Part shown: positions 52,861 to 64,000 of the stretch, in pieces
Position numbering within the stretch: the first letter of the stretch is position 1
Layout of the letters: the number at the start of each line of letters is the position of its first letter
Assembly: GCA_030679035.1 (NCBI GenBank)
Contig: JAUXTH010000002.1
Span: forward strand, 56,132-120,131
DNA length: 64,000 bases
Reading direction: 5' to 3'
Source of the DNA: Methylobacter sp.
GTDB lineage: Bacteria > Pseudomonadota > Gammaproteobacteria > Methylococcales > Methylomonadaceae
The notes under the pieces: model-generated
The model's input: the letters and a program-made list of their open reading frames with translations, nothing else
Database searches by the model: none
What the model was told of the DNA's origin: nothing
Translations under genes and position numbers: made by a program

Positions 52861-53838
52861 ATGGACCGATTCGACAGAATATATCGATTACACAATCTAT
52901 TAACCAACCGGCGCATACCGATACCGTTAACAGTCATCATGAACGAACTCGAATGCGCCAAGGCAACAGCGACGCGTTACATCGAAGACATGCGCACTTA
53001 CCTTGATGCGCCGCTGGAATACGACCGGAAACTCAACGGCTATTACTACGACAGGCAACATGCAAACAAGCCCTACCAACTGCCCGGACTCTGGTTCAGC
53101 GCCGAAGAACTCAACGGCCTGCTGATCTGTCATCAAATCCTGCAAAACATCAGCCCCGGCATACTCAGCCAGCAGATAACTCAGCTGCAACAAAGAATCA
53201 ACCAACTGTTCAAATTAAAGCCGCACACCCCGGTCAATATTTCACAGAAAATAAAAATCCTCTCCATCGGTCGGCGCTTAAAAGACGATGCCCAGTTCAA
53301 GAAAATAGCCACCGCCCTGTTCAACGACAAACAAATCGACATCCACTACACCGCCAGAGGCGCAAACGCCGCACAAAGCCAAAGAACAGTCTCGCCGCAG
53401 CAACTCATCTACTATCGCGATAACTGGTATCTAGCCGCCCACTGCCATCACCGGGATCAACTGCGGGTATTCGCTGTAGACAACATCGACTCAGCAAAAA
53501 TACTAGATCAAACCGCCCAGCCGACCGACCCAAAACAGCTGGAACAATTCCTCACCTCGTCCTACGGCATTTTCAGCGGCACCGCAGAACACACCGCCGT
53601 ACTGGAATTTACCAAAGCCAGAGCTAAATGGGTCGCCGACGAAAACTGGCACCCCAACCAGCAGGGACAATGGCTGGACAACGGCAACTACCAGCTGAGC
53701 ATCCCGTTCAACGACAGCCGCGAATTGATCATGGACATCCTCAAACACGGCGCAGAAGTGGAAGTTAAATCGCCGCAGTTTTTGGTTGATGGAGTCAGGG
53801 AGCAAGTAGAAGCCATGCAAAAAATTTATAAAAAATAA
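52861..53838 (+). CDS. WYL-domain (HTH-WYL-WCX) transcriptional regulator
   Basis: N-terminal wHTH (RIYRLHNLL..ELECAKATATRYIEDMR), a central WYL-like segment (YYRDNWYLAAHC..RVFAVDNI) and a C-terminal extension. Confidence 0.8.
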   Translation: MDRFDRIYRLHNLLTNRRIPIPLTVIMNELECAKATATRYIEDMRTYLDAPLEYDRKLNGYYYDRQHANKPYQLPGLWFSAEELNGLLICHQILQNISPGILSQQITQLQQRINQLFKLKPHTPVNISQKIKILSIGRRLKDDAQFKKIATALFNDKQIDIHYTARGANAAQSQRTVSPQQLIYYRDNWYLAAHCHHRDQLRVFAVDNIDSAKILDQTAQPTDPKQLEQFLTSSYGIFSGTAEHTAVLEFTKARAKWVADENWHPNQQGQWLDNGNYQLSIPFNDSRELIMDILKHGAEVEVKSPQFLVDGVREQVEAMQKIYKK

Positions 53839-53898: not shown

Positions 53899-56601
53899 GT
53901 GATCAAAGTGACTGGAAAGCTGTATTACAAATATTGGGGCAAGGCCGGTTCGGATGACATGCAGGCCAATAACTTTCATTTGTTGCCGTATCATTGTCTG
54001 GATGTGGCGGCAGTAGGCTGGCGATTATTGAAGCCCGACATGCCGCTTTGTAAACAATTAGCAAAGCAATTGGAAGTAGAGCCCGAATGGCTAAGAACAT
54101 TATTTGTTTTCTGTCTGGCACTGCATGATCTGGGCAAATTTGCTCGAGCTTTTCAGGGCTTGAGGCAGGATTTATCAGCTGATTTGGTAAAAGCCAATTC
54201 CAGAATGTCTTATTCTGAACGACACGACAGTTTGGGCTTTTGTCTTTGGCAAGAAACACTGCAAACCAAACTGCTTGAGCAACCGCCAAGCAATGAGTCA
54301 GCAGGTAACGAATGGCTATTTCATTTAGAGCCTTGGCTGGAAATAGTCTCCGGCCATCATGGCATGCCGCCCAAAACAAATTTACGAACGCGGAATTTCT
54401 TTGAAGTTGAAGATGAGCAAGCGGCAATGGCATTTGTACAGGTTGCTATTGCACTTCTTCTTGGCGATTTCGATTTCAAACCGTTACTGGACAAGGCGCT
54501 TAAGAAACGGCTGAAACCCGTATCCTGGCAATTGGCAGGGGTCGCGGTATTGGCCGATTGGTTGGGCTCGAATCAGGATCATTTTAAATACTGCGATAAA
54601 CCAAAAGATTTGAATGTGTATTGGCGTGAGATAGCTATAAAAAAAGCGGAAGACGCTGTTAATACTTTACCGAAAACACCCGATGTTGCCTCATTTCAAA
54701 CTATCGAAAATCTATTTCCTTTTATTCAGCAACCTACACCGCTGCAAAAATATGCCATCAACGAACCGCTTACCGAACTACCGCAACTCTTTATACTAGA
54801 AGATGTCACCGGAGCTGGAAAAACCGAAGCAGCCTTGATTTTAACCCAACGCCTGATGGCGCAAGGCTTGGCAGATGGTTTATATATTGCCTTGCCCACC
54901 ATGGCGACAGCCAATGCCATGTATAAAAGATTGGGCGATGTTTATCGCAAGTTTTATCAATCGGGCAGTGAACCGTCGCTGATTCTGGCTCACGGTGCCC
55001 GCGAGTTGTCCCAGGATTTCCAGGCTTCTGTTATTTTAGCCAAGCAGTCGATAATAGACGGCGATTATCTGAATGGAAACAATGAGGAGGATCAGGAATT
55101 AAGCGCCACCGCCTACTGCAATGCATGGTTGGCCGACAGCCGTAAAAAAGCGCTACTGGCCGATGTCGGCGTCGGCACATTGGATCAAGCTTTGTTAGCG
55201 GTTTTGCCAGCGCGTCATCAGTCGCTACGCTTGCTGGGATTGGGCCGAAAGGTATTGTTGGTCGACGAAGTCCATGCTTACGACAGTTACATGCAAAAGT
55301 TGCTGGATGCTTTGCTGGAAGCCCATGCCCGGCAAGGCGGCAGCGTGATTTTGTTATCGGCAACCTTGCCGCAAACTATGCGCGAAATCTTGGTCAACGC
55401 CTTTCATAAAGGCCTGGAGCAAGCTGCTCCAACGCTGAGCGATCCGGCTCAATATCCTTTAGCCACCCATACCCCGGCAGCAACCGTTGAACAACAGATC
55501 GATACCCGTGAAGCCGTAAAACGTATCGTCAACATTCAACGCCTGAACAGCGAAGACGAAGTGATTGCGCAAATTCAGATAGCCGTTGCTGCTGGACATT
55601 GCGTGTGCTGGATACGCAACACGGTAAAAGCCGCCAGACAGTCTTATCAAGATTTACTGGATGCCGGTATTGATGCGAATCGGTTAAGTTTGTTTCACAG
55701 CCGCTTTGCGATGATCGACCGCCAAGAAATTGAAAACCGCACCTTGCAATATTTTGGTGATGGCTCGACCCCTGAACATAGAAAAGGTCAGGTATTGATA
55801 GCCACGCAAGTGGTTGAGCAGTCGCTGGACTTGGATTTCGACGTGATGATCACCGATTTAGCACCAATCGATTTGATTATTCAGCGAGCGGGAAGATTGA
55901 TGCGTCATGTCCGGGATGCGCAAGGTAACCGGATCAGACAGGAAGGCGCAAAAGACCAGCGAGGCACACCAACGCTTTATCTGTATTCACCAGAACCGAT
56001 AGAAAACGCGGATGTAAATTGGCTGAAACCGGATCATGCCGGAACGCAGGCGATTTACCCGCATATTGGACAGCTTTGGTTGACGGCGAAACATTTGGTT
56101 GGGCGGGGACGATTCGCTATGCCCGATGATGCGAGATATTTAATTGAAGGCGTGTATTCGTTTGATGCCGAAGCAGACATACCGGATGTATTGTTGGACG
56201 GTTCTATGCAAGCGACAAGCAAAGCCATGGTGCAAAAAAGTATGGCTGATTTGAACGTGCTCAAACTTAATAAAGGCTATACCCGTTCCAGCGGCGATTG
56301 GGATGAGGAAACCAGAATCCCGACTCGATTAACTGAAGAAGAAACCGTCTCGGTAGCTCTGGCGATTTTAGAAAACGGCCAGCTAAAACCTTATGCCAAA
56401 GCGGAGCCTTATGCCTGGGCGTTGAGCACCGTCAAATTACCTGAACACGAATGGAAAAAAGCGCAACAGCAGATCCCGGAAAATCTGAAAAGTTTGATCG
56501 AAACCTTGAAAACCGAGCAAAAAGCATTGCGTTGGGTTGAGATATTACCGTTGGAGGAGGGGCAGCTCATCTACAGTCCGCAACATGGGTTTGTAGGGTA
56601 A
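53899..56601 (+). CDS. cas3: Type I-E CRISPR-associated helicase/nuclease Cas3
   Basis: HD domain (HCLDVAAV, LHDLGKF, SGHHG). SF2 helicase motifs (TGAGKTEA, LVDEVHAY, SATLP, QVVEQSLDLDFD, QRAGR). Confidence 0.93.
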   Translation: MIKVTGKLYYKYWGKAGSDDMQANNFHLLPYHCLDVAAVGWRLLKPDMPLCKQLAKQLEVEPEWLRTLFVFCLALHDLGKFARAFQGLRQDLSADLVKANSRMSYSERHDSLGFCLWQETLQTKLLEQPPSNESAGNEWLFHLEPWLEIVSGHHGMPPKTNLRTRNFFEVEDEQAAMAFVQVAIALLLGDFDFKPLLDKALKKRLKPVSWQLAGVAVLADWLGSNQDHFKYCDKPKDLNVYWREIAIKKAEDAVNTLPKTPDVASFQTIENLFPFIQQPTPLQKYAINEPLTELPQLFILEDVTGAGKTEAALILTQRLMAQGLADGLYIALPTMATANAMYKRLGDVYRKFYQSGSEPSLILAHGARELSQDFQASVILAKQSIIDGDYLNGNNEEDQELSATAYCNAWLADSRKKALLADVGVGTLDQALLAVLPARHQSLRLLGLGRKVLLVDEVHAYDSYMQKLLDALLEAHARQGGSVILLSATLPQTMREILVNAFHKGLEQAAPTLSDPAQYPLATHTPAATVEQQIDTREAVKRIVNIQRLNSEDEVIAQIQIAVAAGHCVCWIRNTVKAARQSYQDLLDAGIDANRLSLFHSRFAMIDRQEIENRTLQYFGDGSTPEHRKGQVLIATQVVEQSLDLDFDVMITDLAPIDLIIQRAGRLMRHVRDAQGNRIRQEGAKDQRGTPTLYLYSPEPIENADVNWLKPDHAGTQAIYPHIGQLWLTAKHLVGRGRFAMPDDARYLIEGVYSFDAEADIPDVLLDGSMQATSKAMVQKSMADLNVLKLNKGYTRSSGDWDEETRIPTRLTEEETVSVALAILENGQLKPYAKAEPYAWALSTVKLPEHEWKKAQQQIPENLKSLIETLKTEQKALRWVEILPLEEGQLIYSPQHGFVG

Positions 56602-56685
56602 ATCCCCACGGGTGTGGGGAACGAATTAATTTATTCTATCAAGAAAGAGATAGAATCGGTTCATCCCCACGGGTGTGGGGAATAT
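56596..56685 (-). CRISPR. Two-repeat / one-spacer mini-CRISPR (psi-array) with I-E-type repeats, antisense to the cas genes
   Basis: The repeats are 56596..56624 and 56657..56685, with 61-bp periodicity (29+32) and an identical 20-nt core ATCCCCACGGGTGTGGGGAA. Read on the minus strand the sequence is ATATTCCCCACACCCGTGGGGATGAACCG, which is collinear with the E. coli I-E repeat. The spacer is 56625..56656. Confidence 0.7.
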
Positions 56686-56724
56686 ATAGTTTAAGTGATT
56701 TTATATTTTTTAGAAAGAGTAATT

Positions 56725-56743
56725 AAGAAAGAGAAAGAATCTT
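56725..56743 (-). promoter_or_regulatory. PAM-flanked partial protospacer for the mini-array spacer (candidate Cascade binding/repression site)
   Basis: The minus strand reads 5'-AAG ATTCTTTCTCTTTCTT-3', and the crRNA-sense spacer 5' end is ATTCTATCTCTTTCTT. That is a 15/16 match with the mismatch at position 6 only. Confidence 0.5.
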
Positions 56744-56813
56744 ATCTTTATCGTTTACTTATTTTTGATTTGAAATTATCATTGTCCTGTCAAAACAGCA
56801 ATGAGGATTTAAC

Positions 56814-56924
56814 GTGGATCAAATTAAGGGGATTATCGATGCAATTAACTCTTTTTCGCCGGCACCGTTAGCTGTTATCGGTTTGGCACTAGTGTTAGCA
56901 ATTATTCTGGCACTGAAAATGTAA
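56814..56924 (+). CDS. 36-aa hydrophobic peptide ORF (candidate small membrane toxin)
   Basis: GTG start 6 nt after a GAGGA SD. It encodes MDQIKGIIDAINSFSPAPLAVIGLALVLAIILALKM, with a single C-terminal TM-like helix. It is below the track's ORF size cut-off. Confidence 0.35.
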   Translation: MDQIKGIIDAINSFSPAPLAVIGLALVLAIILALKM

Positions 56925-57001
56925 ATTGTTAAGAAAACTTAGGAATTGGTAACACGAATTCGGTAGAAATAAATTGATGTATTTAGATATAGGAACCAAC
57001 A

Positions 57002-57205
57002 ATGAAACTTAAAGTAATCGTACACGAAGCAGAAGAAGGCGGTTTTTGGGCGGAAGTGCCGTCAATACCTGGATGCGTAACGCAAGGCGATACCTTCGAT
57101 GAATTGCTGGGCAATATTTACGAAGCGGTAGAAGGTTGCTTGGCTGTTGATATTGATGAAACAACTATAACCGGAAACGACAGAGTCATGGAGATAGCCG
57201 TGTGA
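57002..57205 (+). CDS. hicB: HicB-family antitoxin
   Basis: [43 protein letters not shown] is a typical HicB/UPF0150 N-domain. Confidence 0.85.
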
Positions 57206-57408
57206 AGGCGGTCAGCGGCAAAAGGCTTTGTCGGCTGTTGGAAATCAGGTGCTGGGAATTAAAGCGTATCAACGGTAGTCATCATATTTACGCCAAGTCA
57301 GGCAGCAATCTTCGCATTTCCGTCCCGGTACATGGCGACAGTGCATTAAAAATCGGTTTGCAGAAGCAGATTATGAAAATGGCCGACATCGACGAATCCG
57401 AATTGTAA
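57202..57408 (+). CDS. hicA: HicA-family mRNA-interferase toxin
   Basis: [26 protein letters not shown]....ISVPVHG...[11 protein letters not shown] matches the HicA/YcfA pattern. 4-nt overlap with hicB. Confidence 0.85.
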
Positions 57409-57438
57409 TAGACGGCTTGTGAAAGCCAAGGAGAATAC

Positions 57439-59013
57439 ATGAATTTACTCAATGACCGCTGGATACCGGTCATTCGTCAAAATGGGCTGCCGGACACTAT
57501 CGCTCCTTGCCAAATTGTCGAAGCGGATAATCCTGTTGTTGAGATCAATGCGCCAAGACCTGATTTCCAGGGGGCTTTGTACCAGTTGTTAATCGGTTTG
57601 CTGCAAACTTGTTTTTCACCGGAAGATGAAGAGCAATGGTTGGAGTATTGGCGGAAAATTCCGGAGCCGGAAGCATTGCAGGCCTGTTTTGAAAAAGTGG
57701 CGTTTGCGTTCGAGTTGGATGCCGCCGACGGCCCTGCATTTTTGCAGGATTTCGATTTGCCCGATGGAGAAACCAAAGTAATTTCAGCATTATTGATCGA
57801 ATCACCGGGCGGAAAAACACTTAAAGATAATCTCGATCACTTCGTCAAACGCGATAGGGCGAATCAGCTTTGCCCTAGTTGTACTGCAACAGCTTTATTT
57901 ACGCTGCAAACCAATGCGCCTTCCGGCGGCGTTGGTCATCGTGTCGGACTTCGCGGCGGTGGGCCGCTGACAACTTTTATTTTTCCAAAAGTCCCATCGA
58001 CTACTTTATGGCAAAAGCTTTGGTTGAATGTATTGAATCAAGAAGAACTTGAACCTGCTGAAAAAATTGATTCAAGCATCTTACCTTGGCTCGGTAAAAC
58101 CCGTGTTTCTGACAAAGGGCAAATAACCTCGCCTAGCGAAGTTCATCCATTACATGCTTACTGGGGTATGCCTCGTCGTATCCGTTTGACGAAAAAAATA
58201 GAGGATGCCAATTGCGATCTATGCGGCAACCATGCAGAACTTTTATATCAGGCCTACCGAACCAAAAATTACGGCACCAATTACGAAGGCGCTTGGGTGC
58301 ATCCTTTAACACCTTATCGCTTCGACCCGAAAAAGGTCAATCCGCCATTATCCTTGAAAGGTCAGCAAGGTGGCTTAGGTTATCGGCATTGGCTTGGGCT
58401 TACCCTGCAAGACAATGATAACGGCGATAAAGCGTCAAAAACCATACAGTTCTATAACGAAGAGCGCGGCAGAAGCTTACGGGACAATGGCGGGGCTTCG
58501 CTTTGGTGTTTTGGCTACGACATGGACAACATGAAAGCAAGGTGCTGGTATGAATCGCGATTCCCTATCTATTACCTTAGTGAAATGCAACGCAACAATC
58601 TGACGGATTGGGCTGCTGAGTTCGTTAATGCCGCCAAAGAAACCGTCAAAATGCTGCGTGATGAAGTAAAGTCGGCCTGGTTTAATCGCCCGAAAGACGC
58701 CAAGGGCGATATGAGCCAAATCGACGCGCAATTTTGGCAAACCACAGAAACAGATTTTTATCAGTTACTTGAGCAACTGGCAGTGCTCCCAGAGGATACG
58801 CGAATGGCACCGAGTGAAATTTATGCAAGCTGGTATGAAACCCTCAGAAAGCAGATGTTTCAGGTTTTTGAAGCGGCAACCTTGGCATCAACACCGGAAG
58901 ACCTAAATTTAAAGCGGATTGTGAATGCGAAAAAAGCCTTACGCATTAAGTTTTACGGCAACAAAATCATCAAAAATCTCAAAACAAATGCCAAACCAGA
59001 GGGGGCAGCCTGA
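57439..59013 (+). CDS. cas8e: Cascade large subunit Cse1/Cas8e
   Basis: MNLLNDRWIPV N-terminus and GLRGGGPLTTF, collinear with remembered E. coli CasA. Confidence 0.9.
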   Translation: MNLLNDRWIPVIRQNGLPDTIAPCQIVEADNPVVEINAPRPDFQGALYQLLIGLLQTCFSPEDEEQWLEYWRKIPEPEALQACFEKVAFAFELDAADGPAFLQDFDLPDGETKVISALLIESPGGKTLKDNLDHFVKRDRANQLCPSCTATALFTLQTNAPSGGVGHRVGLRGGGPLTTFIFPKVPSTTLWQKLWLNVLNQEELEPAEKIDSSILPWLGKTRVSDKGQITSPSEVHPLHAYWGMPRRIRLTKKIEDANCDLCGNHAELLYQAYRTKNYGTNYEGAWVHPLTPYRFDPKKVNPPLSLKGQQGGLGYRHWLGLTLQDNDNGDKASKTIQFYNEERGRSLRDNGGASLWCFGYDMDNMKARCWYESRFPIYYLSEMQRNNLTDWAAEFVNAAKETVKMLRDEVKSAWFNRPKDAKGDMSQIDAQFWQTTETDFYQLLEQLAVLPEDTRMAPSEIYASWYETLRKQMFQVFEAATLASTPEDLNLKRIVNAKKALRIKFYGNKIIKNLKTNAKPEGAA

Positions 59014-59603
59014 TGAGCGAAGATTATTTTTTAAATGCGGCGGAAAAACAGGCGGTGCATAGCTGGTACGTATGGCTGGACGATAATCGCGGTGACCGAG
59101 CTCGGCTACGCCGCGCGGAAAGCCCGGAAGATATTTTATTGACCGATGCATTTTTTCATTTTTTAGCGAAGATGCCGGAGCAATGGCAACAAAACAAACC
59201 GATGCTGACCAGTGCCAGCATCGCTGGTGCGCTGTCCCATGTTAAAACTGACAAACAAACGCCCAGCAAGCTATACAACAGCAAAGCCACCGATGCGCCG
59301 AAGAAATCGGCTAGTTTCGCCGAACAACTGGCATCGCCGTCGGAAGGCAAAAGCAAGGCTCCGATGAGCGAATTACGTTTTCAGCAATTACAAAAAAGCC
59401 CAACCACCGATGATTTTTATCGCCGGATTATCAGGGCCATTGGACTGCTTGGCGGTAACGTCAATATTATCTCGTTAGCTAACGACATTATTCATTGGCA
59501 TCGTGAGTTTGAGCAGCAAGTCGACCATCGACAGCCTGCTAACCGCCTAGCTGTGCGTTGGGCCACCGATTATTTCACTGCTTTACCTAAAAATTCTGAC
59601 TAA
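59013..59603 (+). CDS. cse2: Cascade small subunit Cse2/Cas11
   Basis: Position and size (196 aa) between cas8e and cas7e. Helical, basic. ATGA-type coupling. Confidence 0.8.
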   Translation: MSEDYFLNAAEKQAVHSWYVWLDDNRGDRARLRRAESPEDILLTDAFFHFLAKMPEQWQQNKPMLTSASIAGALSHVKTDKQTPSKLYNSKATDAPKKSASFAEQLASPSEGKSKAPMSELRFQQLQKSPTTDDFYRRIIRAIGLLGGNVNIISLANDIIHWHREFEQQVDHRQPANRLAVRWATDYFTALPKNSD

Positions 59604-59614
59604 GGAGAGACCAT

Positions 59615-60679
59615 ATGAGCCGCTTTATCCAATTACATTTATTAACCGCTTATCCGCCTGCCAATTTGAATCGTGACGATCAAGGCAGCCCAAAAACTGC
59701 CAAGATGGGCGGTTATGATCGCTTGCGGGTTTCTTCACAATGCTTGAAAAGAACTTGGCGCACATCGGACTTATTTCAAGCTGCAATGAGTGATCATTTG
59801 GGCACACGTACCAAATTATTAGGGATAGATATTTATAACCAGTTAATCGCTGGAGGGATAAAAGAAAAGGACGCCAAAGAATGGACGAAATCCATAGCCG
59901 GGGTATTTGGCGCATTAAAAAAAGCTGAAAAAGACAAACAATTGGCAGACCTTGAGATTGAACAATTAGTTCATGTCAGTCCTGCCGAACTACAGATGAT
60001 GAAAACGCTGACTGAAAAACTCATTGCTGAACAGCGAGCACCGGACGTTGATGAGCTTAAGCTGCTTCGCTTGAATGAACAGGCAGTGGATATTGCCCTG
60101 TTCGGCCGTATGTTAGCTTCCAGCCCCGCTTTTAATATTGAAGCCGCTTGCCAAGTAGCTCACGCCATAAGCGTACATCCAGTGGTGATCGAAGACGATT
60201 ATTTCACCGCTGTCGATGATCTTAATAACGGCTTGGAAGATATGGGCGCGGCTCATATCGGCGAAACCCGCTTCGCAGCCGGTTTGTTCTATTCCTACAT
60301 CTGCATTAACCGGGAATTGCTGATTAAAAATCTGGATGGCAATGAAGACTTGGCAAACAAAGCCATTCGTGCTTTAACCGAAGCGGCGGTTAAAGTCGCT
60401 CCCGAAGGCAAGCAAAACAGCTTTGCGTCCCGCGCTTATGCTTCGTATGTATTGGCGGAAAAGGGCAATCAGCAACCCCGTTCGTTGTCAATTGCCTACC
60501 TCAAACCGATTAACCATCGTGAAAATGAAGATTTCATCGCCGATTCCATTACCGCCATCATTAAACAAAAAGACAGTTTCGATAAGGTCTACGGTGCCTG
60601 TGCGGATACTCGCTGTGAACTGAATGTACCCAAAGAGCAGGGTACTTTGGCTGAGTTGCTGGATTTCGTCGGTCAATAA
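59615..60679 (+). CDS. cas7: Cascade backbone subunit Cas7e (CasC)
   Basis: FIQLHLLTAYPPANLNRDDQGSPKTAKMGGYDRLRVSSQCLKRTWR is a canonical Cas7e N-terminus. Confidence 0.92.
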   Translation: MSRFIQLHLLTAYPPANLNRDDQGSPKTAKMGGYDRLRVSSQCLKRTWRTSDLFQAAMSDHLGTRTKLLGIDIYNQLIAGGIKEKDAKEWTKSIAGVFGALKKAEKDKQLADLEIEQLVHVSPAELQMMKTLTEKLIAEQRAPDVDELKLLRLNEQAVDIALFGRMLASSPAFNIEAACQVAHAISVHPVVIEDDYFTAVDDLNNGLEDMGAAHIGETRFAAGLFYSYICINRELLIKNLDGNEDLANKAIRALTEAAVKVAPEGKQNSFASRAYASYVLAEKGNQQPRSLSIAYLKPINHRENEDFIADSITAIIKQKDSFDKVYGACADTRCELNVPKEQGTLAELLDFVGQ

Positions 60680-60690
60680 AGGGGCACATC

Positions 60691-61473
60691 ATGGACATTC
60701 TGCTATTCCGTCTTTACGGGCCGATGGCAAGCTGGGGTGAAATCGCCGTTGGTGAAAGCCGCCATACTGCCAGTTATCCCAGTAAATCCGCCATTATCGG
60801 CTTGCTGGGAGCCGCATTGGGCATTGCGCGCGGCGACGAACAAAAACAGCAACAGCTTCAACAAGGCTACGCGTTAGCTGTGGAATTATTGACGGCCGGT
60901 AATTTGCTGCGCGATTACCACACCACTCAAGTGCCCGACTCGGTGGGCAAGTTTACTTATCGCACCCGGCGTGATGAACTGATTTTGGGCAAAGAACGCT
61001 TGGGTACCATTTTATCCAGCCGAGAATACCGCACCGACGCTTTGGCGCTGGTTGCGATTCGTGCTTTAGCAGATGCCCCGTTTACGTTGGCTGAAATTCA
61101 GGCGGCTTTGTTACAACCCAAATATCACCTGTACCTGGGGCGCAAATCCTGTCCTTTGGCAGCGCCTTTGCACCCGCAGCTTATAACCGATCAGCTTAAC
61201 TATTATGACGCGTTTAAAGCTTATCAACATAAACCGATGTTGCCGACGTCGATAGCCAGCGATGGAACTTTGGCTAAGCGTGATTATGACTGGTTGGGTC
61301 GGCCGAATGATCGCCATTATTACTGGGAAGGACTGCCGGAGGATTTTTCCGATGATACTTTGGCTTTAACCCGGCGACAAACGCGCACCCGGCATGATCA
61401 GCCGTTATCTCGCAAACGCTGGCAGTTTATGCCGCGCCAAGAGCATTATTTATTCTGTCCGGGAGGTGAGTAA
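60691..61473 (+). CDS. cas5: Cas5e (CasD)
   Basis: LLFRLYGPMASWGEIAVGESRHTASYPSKSAIIGLLGAALGI is a canonical Cas5e N-terminus. Confidence 0.92.
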   Translation: MDILLFRLYGPMASWGEIAVGESRHTASYPSKSAIIGLLGAALGIARGDEQKQQQLQQGYALAVELLTAGNLLRDYHTTQVPDSVGKFTYRTRRDELILGKERLGTILSSREYRTDALALVAIRALADAPFTLAEIQAALLQPKYHLYLGRKSCPLAAPLHPQLITDQLNYYDAFKAYQHKPMLPTSIASDGTLAKRDYDWLGRPNDRHYYWEGLPEDFSDDTLALTRRQTRTRHDQPLSRKRWQFMPRQEHYLFCPGGE

Positions 61474-62345
61474 TGTATTTTTCCAGAGTCTGCATCCGTC
61501 CCAATATTTTCAAATCATCGCAATTAGGGAGGGTACTTGAAGGCAATGTTTACGGTATTCATCGCCTGTTATGGGATTTGTTTCCTGATGACCAGCAAAG
61601 AACTTTTTTATACCGCGAAGAAATTGCTCGTGAACAGTTGGGGGCATTGCCAACTGTACGCGGCGAAGCTGTTTATTATCTGGTATCGCAAACCAAGCCA
61701 ATCGAAACTGAATTATTCAACGTTGACTCGAAGGACTATCAGCCGCAACTGGAAATAGGACAGCGCCTGACATTTGAATGTCGAGCCAATCCAGTTGTGA
61801 CAAGGCAAGGCAAAAAACATGACGTGGTTATGGATGCGCAGCAGCAGTTTTTAAAATTGTTGGTTAAAGAGTTCAATCTTGATACCGATTTGCCAGCCAA
61901 ACAGGAAAAGAGTGCATACAAAAGACTACTGCTGGATAAAGGTGGAGAAACACTCAGCCAGCGGCTTACCGAAATACTGCAAACTGATCCACTTTATGCC
62001 GAACGTCTACAACAGTCTGGGCAGCTTTCTGACCGGCTGGAATGGGCACTAAAAGCCTGTGTCGATAGAACTCTTGAACACTGGTTCATTAAGCAGGGCG
62101 AACGTCTGGGATTCAAGCTGGTTGCTGATAATAACAATTTAAGCAAGCTGCAAAACAGCACTTATCAGTGGCATAGTTTGTCAGAAAAAGGGGGGAAGGG
62201 CGATAAAGCAGGCTTCAGCTCGGTCGATTTTACTGGAGAACTGCAAATAACCGATATGGAGAAATTCAAGGAAGCTTTGTTTATCGGTATTGGGCGATCA
62301 AAGGCATTTGGTTGTGGATTGCTGATGGTACGGCGATGTGGGTAG
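61473..62345 (+). CDS. cas6e: Cas6e (CasE) crRNA endoribonuclease with a non-canonical C-terminal end
   Basis: MYFSRV..HRLLWDLFP.. and GIGRSKAFGCGLL motifs. The last residues, MVRRCG, replace the usual SLA-type ending. Confidence 0.9.
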   Translation: MYFSRVCIRPNIFKSSQLGRVLEGNVYGIHRLLWDLFPDDQQRTFLYREEIAREQLGALPTVRGEAVYYLVSQTKPIETELFNVDSKDYQPQLEIGQRLTFECRANPVVTRQGKKHDVVMDAQQQFLKLLVKEFNLDTDLPAKQEKSAYKRLLLDKGGETLSQRLTEILQTDPLYAERLQQSGQLSDRLEWALKACVDRTLEHWFIKQGERLGFKLVADNNNLSKLQNSTYQWHSLSEKGGKGDKAGFSSVDFTGELQITDMEKFKEALFIGIGRSKAFGCGLLMVRRCG

Positions 62346-62400
62346 GTATTTTAAGCACCAAGTTTTTAGTCTGCGGGCTGTCATTTTTGGATGTTTGCGA

Positions 62401-62637
62401 ATGATCTTACAAGTAACAAATGTCAAATATCTGCATGATTATCAATTGTGGCTAAGGTTCAATGATGATTCGGAAGGCATCGTCGATTTAGACGGCGAAC
62501 TGTGGGGAACTGTTTTTGATTCACTTAATGACCTGACTTTATTCAGTCAGGCTAAATTGGATAAAGAGTTGGCTACCGTGGTTTGGCCTAACGGGGCGGA
62601 TTTTGCTCCTGAGTTTCTACATGCGTTATTAAAGTGA
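62401..62637 (+). CDS. DUF2442-family protein
   Basis: VTNVKYLHDYQLWLRFNDDSEGIVDL...LDKELATVVWPNGADFAPEFL is a typical DUF2442 pattern. ATG at 62401. Confidence 0.75.
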   Translation: MILQVTNVKYLHDYQLWLRFNDDSEGIVDLDGELWGTVFDSLNDLTLFSQAKLDKELATVVWPNGADFAPEFLHALLK

Positions 62638-62754: not shown

Positions 62755-63030
62755 ATGAATCTATCAAAAAACATTAAACCGATTAGCTATCTCAAGGCTA
62801 ATGCGGCGCAAGTCGCTTTGGAACCAAAAGATTCCGGGCAAGCGATGGTCATTACTCAAAACAGCGAAGCCACTATGATTGTACAGTCCGTTGCTGAGTA
62901 CGAACGCATGCAAGAAACTTTGGCATTGTTGAAAATGCTGGCGCAAAGCCAACAAGCGGTCAGTTTAGGGAAAACCATCCCCAGTGCGGATGCCTTTAGC
63001 CAATTGCGTGCGCGGCGCGGGCTAGCATGA
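62755..63030 (+). CDS. Phd/YefM-family antitoxin
   Basis: KPISYLKANAAQV.....G.AMVITQNSEATMIVQSVAEYERMQETLALLKML. 4-nt overlap with the toxin ORF. Confidence 0.8.
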   Translation: MNLSKNIKPISYLKANAAQVALEPKDSGQAMVITQNSEATMIVQSVAEYERMQETLALLKMLAQSQQAVSLGKTIPSADAFSQLRARRGLA

Positions 63031-63353
63031 CGCTGGAGGTTGTTCTCTCGGAACCGGCGTTGACTGACTTACTGGATATTAATGATTATTACCTATGCGA
63101 AGTCAGTGATCGCGTTGCAGGTAAGATCATTGATGGCTTGGAAGTCGCTGTAAACAATTTAGCTGAATTTCCTGATCGGGGCAGTATTCCGAAGGAGTTG
63201 TTGTCTTTGGGGATTCGGTAGTATCGGCAAGTGATTGAAAAGCCTTATCGGATTATTTATGAAACATTTGCCGATAAAATTGTATTTCATGCAATACTCG
63301 ATGGACGGCGCGATATGGAAAGTTTACTCATGCAGCGTATTTTACGTGGATGA
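63027..63353 (+). pseudogene. ParE/RelE-family toxin interrupted by an in-frame TAG
   Basis: A 109-codon frame with TAG at codon 65 (63219..63221). Downstream, in the same frame, it reads YRQVIEKPYRIIYETFADKIVFHAILDGRRDME.., the conserved toxin C-half. Confidence 0.75.
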
Positions 63354-63421: not shown

Positions 63422-63569
63422 CGTCATCCCGGCAGGGATTGCCGGGATCCAGTGCACAGGGATGTGAATGCTTGGTTTGACAAAGTAATTCTGCGTAGCA
63501 AGGCTTGTTGCCAGCTTCGGCATTGCCATCCATGGCTTCTGGATTCCGGCAATCCCTGCCGGAATGACG
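63422..63569. mobile_element. 148-bp MITE-like element with 31-bp terminal inverted repeats
   Basis: The left arm is CGTCATCCCGGCAGGGATTGCCGGGATCCAG. The reverse complement of 63539..63569 is CGTCATTCCGGCAGGGATTGCCGGAATCCAG, a 29/31 match. Each arm is itself a hairpin. Track ORFs 63350..63685 and 63407..63766 run through it. Confidence 0.6.
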
Positions 63570-63611: not shown

Positions 63612-64000
63612 ATGCTTCCACCCCTAAGACCCATCACCATGAAAGAACGTGTCTCCATGGCTTTTATCGAAAAAGGCCAGGTTGACGTTAAAGACGGCGC
63701 TTTCGTTGTCATCGACGAAACCGGCATCAGAACCCATATCCCGGTCGGCAGTATCGCCTGCATCATGCTCGAACCGGGGACGCGGGTTTCTCATCAGGCC
63801 GTCACTTTGGCCGCCAGAGCCGGAACCTTGCTGGTCTGGGTCGGCGAGGCTGGGGTTCGGCTTTATGCTTCCGGTCAGCCGGGCGGGGCGCGTTCGGATC
63901 GCTTGCTGTATCAGGCCAAATTGGCATTGGACGATGTCGCGCGGTTAAAAGTGGTGCGCAAAATGTACGAAATCCGTTTTGGCGAGAAACCGCCGGAACG
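63612..64000 (+). CDS. cas1: Cas1 (type I-E), N-terminal part; continues past window end
   Basis: My own translation gives MLPPLRPITMKERVSMAFIEKGQVDVKDGAFVVIDETGIRTHIPVGSIACIMLEPGTRVSHQAVTLAARAGTLLVWVGEAGVRLYASGQPGGARSDRLLYQAKLAL.., nearly collinear with remembered E. coli Cas1. A GGAG SD lies 5 nt upstream. It is not in the ORF track because there is no stop codon in the window. Confidence 0.92.
   Translation, partial: MLPPLRPITMKERVSMAFIEKGQVDVKDGAFVVIDETGIRTHIPVGSIACIMLEPGTRVSHQAVTLAARAGTLLVWVGEAGVRLYASGQPGGARSDRLLYQAKLALDDVARLKVVRKMYEIRFGEKPPE

Follow-up and report, generated by a model that had tools for sequence, protein, structure and literature searches.

A conserved 36-codon ORF for a predicted membrane peptide, behind a putatively Cascade-repressed promoter, in a Methylobacter type I-E CRISPR locus

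What is the role of a 36-codon open reading frame (ORF) lodged between cas3 and cas8e of a type I-E CRISPR locus? The question is raised by a stretch of 64,000 nucleotides (nt) from Methylobacter sp. (contig JAUXTH010000002.1, positions 56,132 to 120,131 of the forward strand), hereafter the window, in which the type I-E locus occupies the plus strand and in which an earlier model inspection of the bare letters, the sequence-only reading, took the ORF at 56814-56924 for a candidate membrane toxin repressed by the CRISPR effector complex Cascade. Comparison with related loci confirms the sequence observation and partly supports the interpretation, toxicity being put forward as a hypothesis. By that comparison the ORF is a genuine protein-coding gene and belongs to a real, previously uncatalogued family of small, predicted membrane proteins whose function is unexplained, and the promoter in front of it appears to be repressed by Cascade through a CRISPR-like guide RNA. 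The elements in question comprise a degenerate mini-array, its partial target, a promoter and the ORF, as follows (window coordinates):

56624-56596, minus strand: PsiR2, mini-array repeat distal to the leader, TCGTTCCCCACACCCGTGGGGATTTACCC
56656-56625, minus strand: PsiS, the spacer-like element (32 nt), reading ATTCTATCTCTTTCTTGATAGAATAAATTAAT on this strand
56685-56657, minus strand: PsiR1, the leader-proximal repeat, ATATTCCCCACACCCGTGGGGATGAACCG
56722..56743, minus strand: partial protospacer with its protospacer adjacent motif (PAM), the PAM AAG at 56743-56741 and protospacer position 1 at 56740
56754-56759 and 56777-56782, plus strand: sigma70-like promoter TTTACT-17-TATCAT from a motif scan, with an inferred transcription start at ~56789
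56803-56807, plus strand: Shine-Dalgarno (SD) sequence GAGGA, 6 nt 5' of the start codon
56814-56924, plus strand: small ORF of 36 amino acids (aa), GTG 56814 to TAA 56924, encoding MDQIKGIIDAINSFSPAPLAVIGLALVLAIILALKM

Re-reading of the sequence bears out what had been described at this site, including the GTG six nt after GAGGA, the 36-codon frame and its translation, the divergent minus-strand mini-array with an AAG-flanked partial protospacer in the shared region, and the TTTACT-17-TATCAT promoter lying 10 nt from the PAM side of the target.

A lone 36-codon ORF in AT-rich DNA is by itself not significant, and a first reading to be weighed is that the frame arose by chance in the AT-rich leader of a cas operon and is no gene. 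The comparison set comprises 80 loci with Cas8e relatives (41-94% identity; here given L numbers), the nearest being from Methylobacter and other Methylococcales, and the peptide was sought by tblastn and two profile rounds over 27,493 six-frame segments from 81 loci. Besides the window, homologues occur in 17 of the 80 loci, every match lying on the cas strand directly 5' of cas8e, with no match elsewhere in those segments. The homologues measure 34-62 aa and fall to ~33-39% identity, the frame nevertheless remaining open and the insertions and deletions being whole codons. Among seven 36-codon members, variable sites are distributed 19:8:33 over the three codon positions, and the pairwise ratio of nonsynonymous to synonymous substitution (dN/dS) is 0.03-0.25, with dS often saturated. 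The ORF is therefore more than chance, since the peptide profile matches that position alone and the substitution pattern is that of a protein-coding gene. Conservation at the amino-acid level in related loci, whose absence the sequence-only reading had set beforehand as grounds for abandoning its idea, is thus present.

Database searches extend the family well beyond these loci. With an alignment headed by a 40-aa homologue, profile searching among 5.8 billion proteins yielded 31 small proteins annotated as 'hypothetical', none with a Pfam domain, and an exhaustive HMMER scan of 1.84 billion representatives returned 26 cluster representatives at E ≤ 1e-3, all 34-62 aa long. The homologues in protein databases number ~45. 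Four look-ups of divergent members led to seven places, all seven with the ORF between cas3 and cas8e, and the four longest continue through cse2, cas7, cas5, cas6e, cas1 and cas2. A degenerate-codon scan of metagenome contigs gave 30 matches, comprising 16 true members and 14 unrelated sequences; cas8e lies downstream of all 16 members and cas3 also lies upstream of 13. All homologues with readable context sit between cas3 and cas8e. Two facts would suit a chance frame, namely that the gene caller skipped the ORF on a Logan contig of identical sequence and that exact-sequence look-up found no database record of the peptide; the reading is nonetheless already refuted, and keeps hardly any probability, in view of the coding pattern of substitutions and of more than 40 distinct homologous sequences, which come from several orders of Gammaproteobacteria. 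The family is overlooked by much automatic annotation. Among individual members, L009 is labelled an Elusimicrobiales metagenome-assembled genome, yet its Cas8e is 78% identical to that of the window and its peptide is of Methylococcales type, so that it may be mis-binned or horizontally transferred; in L008 (5635-5829), where the module is decayed, the ORF extends beyond the usual C-terminus to 64 aa and a palindromic repeat precedes cas8e.

The mini-array comprises two repeats at 61-nt spacing on the minus strand, divergent from the ORF and 127 nt apart from it, with the cas3 stop codon overlapping PsiR2; within the 64-kb window copies of the repeat are confined to the mini-array (2 matches versus 0.05 expected). 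Comparison with the canonical repeat of the clade, GTGTTCCCCACATCCGTGGGGATGAACCG, as read in a relative's full array, indicates that PsiR1 retains the 8-nt 5' handle, which matches the ATGAACCG handle of that canonical repeat. PsiR1 would accordingly supply the 8-nt 5' handle AUGAACCG of a CRISPR RNA (crRNA)-like RNA, and PsiR2 would give its 3' hairpin. By its architecture the mini-array is CreR/CreA-like, a member of the known class of type I-E CreR or crRNA-like RNAs. PsiR1 is far more degenerate than PsiR2 in L007, L009, L012, L027, L029, L052 and L082; such degenerate copies usually retain an AT-rich hairpin of differing sequence together with a GGTTCA handle, which suggests selection for processing by Cas6e. 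The window and L006 are unusual in having the canonical G+C-rich stem in both repeats, and L019 and L023 have hairpins in both. An inverted repeat joining the SD region to a repeat (56599-56615/56795-56811) was considered as a possible regulatory pairing; it is only 76% complementary and was taken as chance, the SD regions of other loci being unlike it.

The spacer-like sequence pairs with the target of the window at positions 1-5, 7-16 and 18-19, and an AAG-flanked target lies between PsiR1 and the ORF in 19 of 19 ORF-bearing loci with a recognisable handle. The same arrangement is seen in all 15 evaluable metagenome loci (14 detected automatically, L112 by manual reading); in L043, whose array has a shorter spacer, the target match was likewise read manually. 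Across the 19 loci, spacer and target agree in 98% of cases at positions 1-5, 7-11 and 13-15, in 39% at positions 6 and 12, and in 28% at positions 21-32. Spacers of different loci share a median identity of only 44% over positions 1-16 while their matches to the adjacent target stay at 98%, and the targets therefore covary with the spacers. Type I-E Cascade flips out every sixth base, and the pattern of matches is as expected for it; the mismatches at positions 6 and 12 and the end of pairing at ~15-19 make natural variation among these 19 loci a readout of the requirements of Cascade for binding without cleavage. A full R-loop and recruitment of Cas3 call for longer pairing than this (see also PMC10120712). 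In L012 (5015), L015 (5342) and L109 the target is inverted and slightly further upstream; in this Methylomonas subgroup it lies upstream of the TTGACx -35 element without overlapping it, and Cascade would bind there in the opposite orientation.

The TTTACT-17-TATCAT element is the only plus-strand promoter-like site in 56400-57500, an interval that reaches cas8e and contains no terminator-like site, and promoter-like sites occupy the equivalent position in L023, L009 and L030. When loci are aligned at the PAM, the -35 element usually takes in the complement of the PAM, CTT (cTTTACt, cTTTGACA, cTTGATA), a -10 element TATCAT/TATTAT follows 16-17 nt after the -35, and a leader of 25-30 nt with an SD comes next; the purine-rich SD is kept across loci while the remainder of the leader diverges, and the window and L006 have 10 extra nt between PAM and -35. 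The sequence-only reading is supported in this respect, the ORF standing directly behind a promoter that bears a covarying, PAM-flanked partial target of the adjacent mini-array. The gap between the end of the ORF and cas8e measures 11-25 nt in most loci. This spacing, the sole promoter and the lack of a terminator argue that the peptide gene leads an operon under a CreR/CreA-type target, and the gene probably heads a transcript comprising the peptide, hicBA in the lineage of the window, and cas8e to cas6e.

The sequence-only reading had treated CreR-type autoregulation of cas genes as an alternative that would overturn its proposal. The two would hold together, because the same promoter is the only visible one for hicBA and cas8e-cse2-cas7-cas5-cas6e, so that the peptide would be the first cistron of an autoregulated operon. 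A first cistron with a short 5' untranslated region that ends a few nt before cas8e in most loci might also act in cis as a leader ORF, its translation alone serving the coupling or stability of the downstream cascade mRNA and its peptide being functionless. Such a role is quite unlikely because purifying selection acts on the amino acids over the whole length and because the ORF is retained when separated from cas8e: it is intact where hicBA (window, L006 and L015) or a 290-nt repeat element (L052) intervenes, and the hydrophobic helix and SPxP motif of the peptide persist down to ~33% identity.

The mini-array, promoter and ORF behave as one unit. L002 and L003, whose Cas8e proteins are 93-94% identical to that of the window, have cas3, hicBA and cas8e, whereas mini-array, promoter and ORF are all missing from both, which marks hicBA as an insertion separate from these three. 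It is absent between ORF and cas8e from most ORF-bearing loci, and was also seen in L006 and L015, with L007 carrying hicB alone. In the window, hicBA lies behind the same Cascade-targeted promoter and would thus be a second potential toxin under CRISPR control in this lineage; HicAB linked to CRISPR has been studied for Cas13a (PMC13448076). With a strict regular expression as mini-array detector, 16 loci have both mini-array and ORF, 56 have neither, 2 have a mini-array without the ORF and 2 the ORF without a mini-array (one of these, L043, does have an array), counts that are not phylogenetically independent. Overall the ORF is accompanied by a mini-array in 36 of 37 evaluable loci, and it occurs in none where cas3 and cas8e abut. 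Since mini-arrays exist without the ORF, the latter is an add-on to the CreR-like circuit, not a requirement of it. A copy of the Methylobacter repeat element GGATTCYGGCAATCCCTGCCGGRATGAC stands in L002 (5380-5450) where the module is missing, and in L011 (4268-4409) the module has decayed to PsiR2, a portion of PsiR1 and the final 17 ORF codons. Unrelated small hydrophobic ORFs occupy the same slot before cas8e in L061 (4045-4224, 59 aa) and L062 (5690-5830, 46 aa), both with a mini-array and a partial target (PAM AAG in L062, not in L061); both are singletons in the protein database and therefore supply no evidence.

AlphaFold2 with the family alignment models helix 2-12, loop 13-17 and helix 18-35 (predicted local distance difference test score 88.8), the loop being Pro-rich (SFSPAP) and the C-terminal end KM. 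The second helix is strongly hydrophobic (Kyte-Doolittle 17-residue maximum 2.9), the most conserved residues are N12, P16, A20, L24 and L26, and the product is a predicted single-pass membrane peptide. No Pfam, NCBIfam, PADLOC, PHROG or PDB-sequence family matches it, nor does any Hok/Gef, Fst, Ldr, TisB or other toxin family at E up to 1; a match to the OppC_N transmembrane family was discarded as spurious, below the family cut-off. tblastn against phage and plasmid records gave nothing meaningful, a search in which the low-complexity filter may hide weak matches.

Type I toxins are small and hydrophobic, and the size and shape of the peptide are similar. The likeness that the sequence-only reading drew to them stands to the extent that Hok, Fst, TisB and Ldr are likewise shorter than 60 aa and combine a single hydrophobic helix with a brief polar stretch; no family similarity, conserved antisense promoter or structured mRNA was detected. 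A classical type I toxin-antitoxin pair, in which an antisense RNA would control a peptide toxin independently of Cascade, could draw on a minus-strand promoter-like site just past the ORF stop (56932-56904, TTAACA-17-CAGAAT, with TG). From that site an antisense RNA could extend across the ORF and on into the mini-array; the sequence of the site is specific to the hicBA-containing lineage and absent from most loci, where cas8e directly follows the ORF, and L023, L009 and L030 show no conserved minus-strand promoter-like site across the ORF. Searches of Pfam, NCBIfam and Rfam gave no type I toxin or antitoxin match, the ORF mRNA folds no better than its shuffled versions (minimum free energy -28.3 versus a shuffle mean of -28.7, z=0.12), and control of the ORF would be transcriptional, by Cascade. 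Such a pair is accordingly very unlikely.

The CreTA systems (type VIII toxin-antitoxin) invite a further comparison, in that Cascade plus CreA represses a promoter beside the mini-array and the same CreA represses cas8, as in haloarchaeal type I-B, where CreA represses both creT and cas8 (10.1101/2023.03.10.532045). A strong SD and a short ORF beside a creA-like mini-array is the layout of CreT (10.1101/2023.03.10.532045), and the transcript might itself sequester a rare tRNA through tandem minor codons, the peptide being irrelevant. Whereas the active form of CreT is an RNA, which works by its tandem rare codons, the ORF contains no tandem rare Arg or Ile codons, and its conservation is on the protein, with synonymous sites saturated; the defining features tested fail for this reading as they do for the antisense pair, which makes both less likely, and an RNA toxin is highly improbable. 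The accompanying premise, that known CreT toxins are RNAs, is outdated, a CRISPR-repressed protein toxin, CreP, being known in type I-F (10.1101/2024.01.05.574328).

CrePA from type I-F of Acinetobacter baylyi ADP1 comprises this CRISPR-repressed toxin and the CreA RNA (10.1101/2024.01.05.574328) and resembles the Methylobacter module in the order of (i) cas3, (ii) PsiR1-PsiS-PsiR2, (iii) a PAM-flanked partial target at the promoter, (iv) a small protein ORF and (v) the first effector gene. In CrePA that gene is csy1, and CreP homologues are confined to this intergenic slot (10.1101/2024.01.05.574328), as homologues of the window peptide are to the slot between cas3 and the effector genes; in both, loss or inhibition of the effector would derepress the ORF. 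The differences comprise the subtype, I-F for CrePA and I-E here; the protein, CreP being a 103-aa KilAC domain that acts on FtsZ, whereas the present peptides are of 36-44 aa with a transmembrane helix; the distance from ORF to target, ~120 nt in CrePA and ~60-75 nt here; and the promoter, which the ORF of the window appears to share with the cascade operon, its toxicity being conjectural. No KilAC domain was found in the peptide with Pfam, NCBIfam, PHROG or PADLOC, and AlphaFold2 gives two helices.

CreR of Salmonella enterica type I-E, a Cas-regulating crRNA-like RNA (10.1101/2023.03.10.532045; survey PMC10120712), shares with the window a degenerate two-repeat mini-array between cas3 and cas8e, opposite to cas3, seed-proximal complementarity over ~15 nt with the region of the casA/cas8e promoter, the AAG PAM and a predicted autorepression of Cascade. 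CreR is by definition without a partner toxin gene, whereas here a conserved peptide gene stands between promoter and cas8e, and the S. enterica site lies ~140 bp upstream of casA whereas here the PAM usually overlaps the -35. The CRISPR-supervised immune systems (CRISIS) of type I-C cas operons (10.1101/2024.12.27.630466) likewise place non-cas cargo, some of it membrane proteins, in a cas operon under the target of a crRNA-like RNA, but belong to another subtype and carry multi-domain defence systems, not a 36-aa peptide. The peptide is outside CreP (no KilAC), CreT (not an RNA toxin) and any type I toxin family, and no small membrane peptide tied to type I-E mini-arrays is described in the literature searched. 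With a CRISPR-repressed protein toxin already known in CreP, what the locus offers is a circuit of known type that carries new cargo, conserved but so far unexplained.

Our tentative preference, held with rather less than even confidence, is that the peptide is a CreP-like, dose-dependent guard or addiction toxin, to judge from layout and peptide type. The mini-array would give a crRNA-like RNA comprising the handle, the 32-nt PsiS and the repeat hairpin, which would be loaded into Cascade and would pair with the AAG-flanked site next to the -35 over only ~15-19 nt; because the pairing is so short, Cascade would occupy the promoter and keep transcription down, and Cas3 would not be recruited. 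The cell would tolerate the resulting low, autoregulated level of peptide. Loss or block of Cascade, for example by an anti-CRISPR, would derepress the promoter, and peptide accumulating in the inner membrane would arrest or kill the cell, so that a guard toxin in the form of a membrane peptide would be built into the cascade operon of a type I-E system. A single hydrophobic helix is a common design of membrane toxins, and it is this, together with the CrePA-like layout, that leads us to favour a toxin. The gene, its fixed position and the covarying PAM-flanked partial target at the promoter emerge from comparison of the loci; repression in vivo, co-transcription, membrane insertion and toxicity we infer.

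Several considerations weigh against a toxin. The case for toxicity is one of position and peptide type, and many small single-transmembrane proteins are harmless; library searches matched no known toxin family and the mRNA is not unusually structured. The promoter is shared with the cascade genes, so that the peptide is made whenever Cascade is, and a potent toxin in the cascade operon would tax normal induction. CreR-type autoregulation alone accounts for the mini-array with no toxin needed, and L033 and L050 have a mini-array and AAG-flanked target but no ORF, as L065 has a detected mini-array and no ORF. Conversely, L040 carries the ORF but no recognisable target, and L083 carries the ORF with a PAM that is not AAG.

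A possible though on balance doubtful explanation is that the peptide is harmless, a small membrane protein that assists or regulates type I-E function, beside an ordinary CreR mini-array. The protein might tether or modulate Cascade or Cas3 at the membrane, or tune another membrane protein, its co-regulation simply reflecting membership of the operon. The close operonic setting before cas8e in most loci agrees with this, the often strong SD with ATG fits a normally expressed protein, toxin-less CreR is established in type I-E (10.1101/2023.03.10.532045), and the strong purifying selection takes in the N-terminal helix and an LNxxSPxP motif that mere membrane damage could dispense with. Against it, most type I-E systems function without the peptide, including relatives with 88-94% identical Cas8e, and the peptide gene keeps company with the mini-array almost without exception and never occurs where cas3 and cas8e abut. 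No type I CRISPR system is known to have a membrane subunit. The more specific proposal that the peptide is just such an unrecognised membrane component of a type I-E subclass, not a toxin, is unlikely; it would link Cascade or Cas3 with the inner membrane, for example where phage DNA enters, or signal the state of the membrane to the system, with its dosage locked to that of Cascade by the crRNA-like RNA.

If the favoured reading of a Cascade-repressed membrane toxin is true, the idea of CRISPR-guarding toxins (CreTA, CrePA) reaches type I-E, the best-studied subtype, and, with a lone transmembrane helix, takes in the simplest effector there could be; both cas autoregulation and an anti-anti-CRISPR guard would then be served by one crRNA-like RNA and one promoter. 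Whatever its function, the peptide represents an uncatalogued small-protein family almost strictly linked to type I-E mini-arrays. The hypothesis is also small in scale, comprising a 111-nt gene and a 130-nt promoter fragment, and is directly testable.

The remainder of the locus comprises the following features:

52861-53838: WYL/WCX-domain regulator gene, just upstream of cas3
53899..56601, plus strand: cas3, 900 aa, from the ORF call, the gene at the same position in related loci having Cas3_HD and Cas3-like_C_2 domains
57002-57205, plus strand: hicB, Pfam HicB_lk_antitox, E=5.6e-7
57202-57408, plus strand: hicA, Pfam HicA_toxin, E=1e-12
57439-59013, plus strand: cas8e, Cascade operon
59013-59603, plus strand: cse2, Cascade operon
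59615-60679, plus strand: cas7, Cascade operon
60691-61473, plus strand: cas5, Cascade operon
61473-62345, plus strand: cas6e, Cascade operon
62338-62637: DUF2442 gene, between cas6e and cas1
62755-63030: Phd/YefM antitoxin gene, between cas6e and cas1
63027-63221, then 63231-63353: ParE toxin gene, apparently interrupted, between cas6e and cas1
63423-63568: inverted pair of the Methylobacter repeat element GGATTCYGGCAATCCCTGCCGGRATGAC, between the ParE remnant and cas1
from 63612, continuing beyond the end of the window: cas1

A locus devoid of cas1/cas2 and array was considered and rejected, cas1 beginning at 63612 and the relatives carrying cas1, cas2 and arrays. The interval between cas6e and cas1 holds three insertions, namely the DUF2442, Phd/YefM antitoxin and ParE genes. 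The WYL/WCX gene may add a second regulatory layer for cas3, and WYL/BrxR-like genes also lie 5' of cas3 in L083, L084 and L087.

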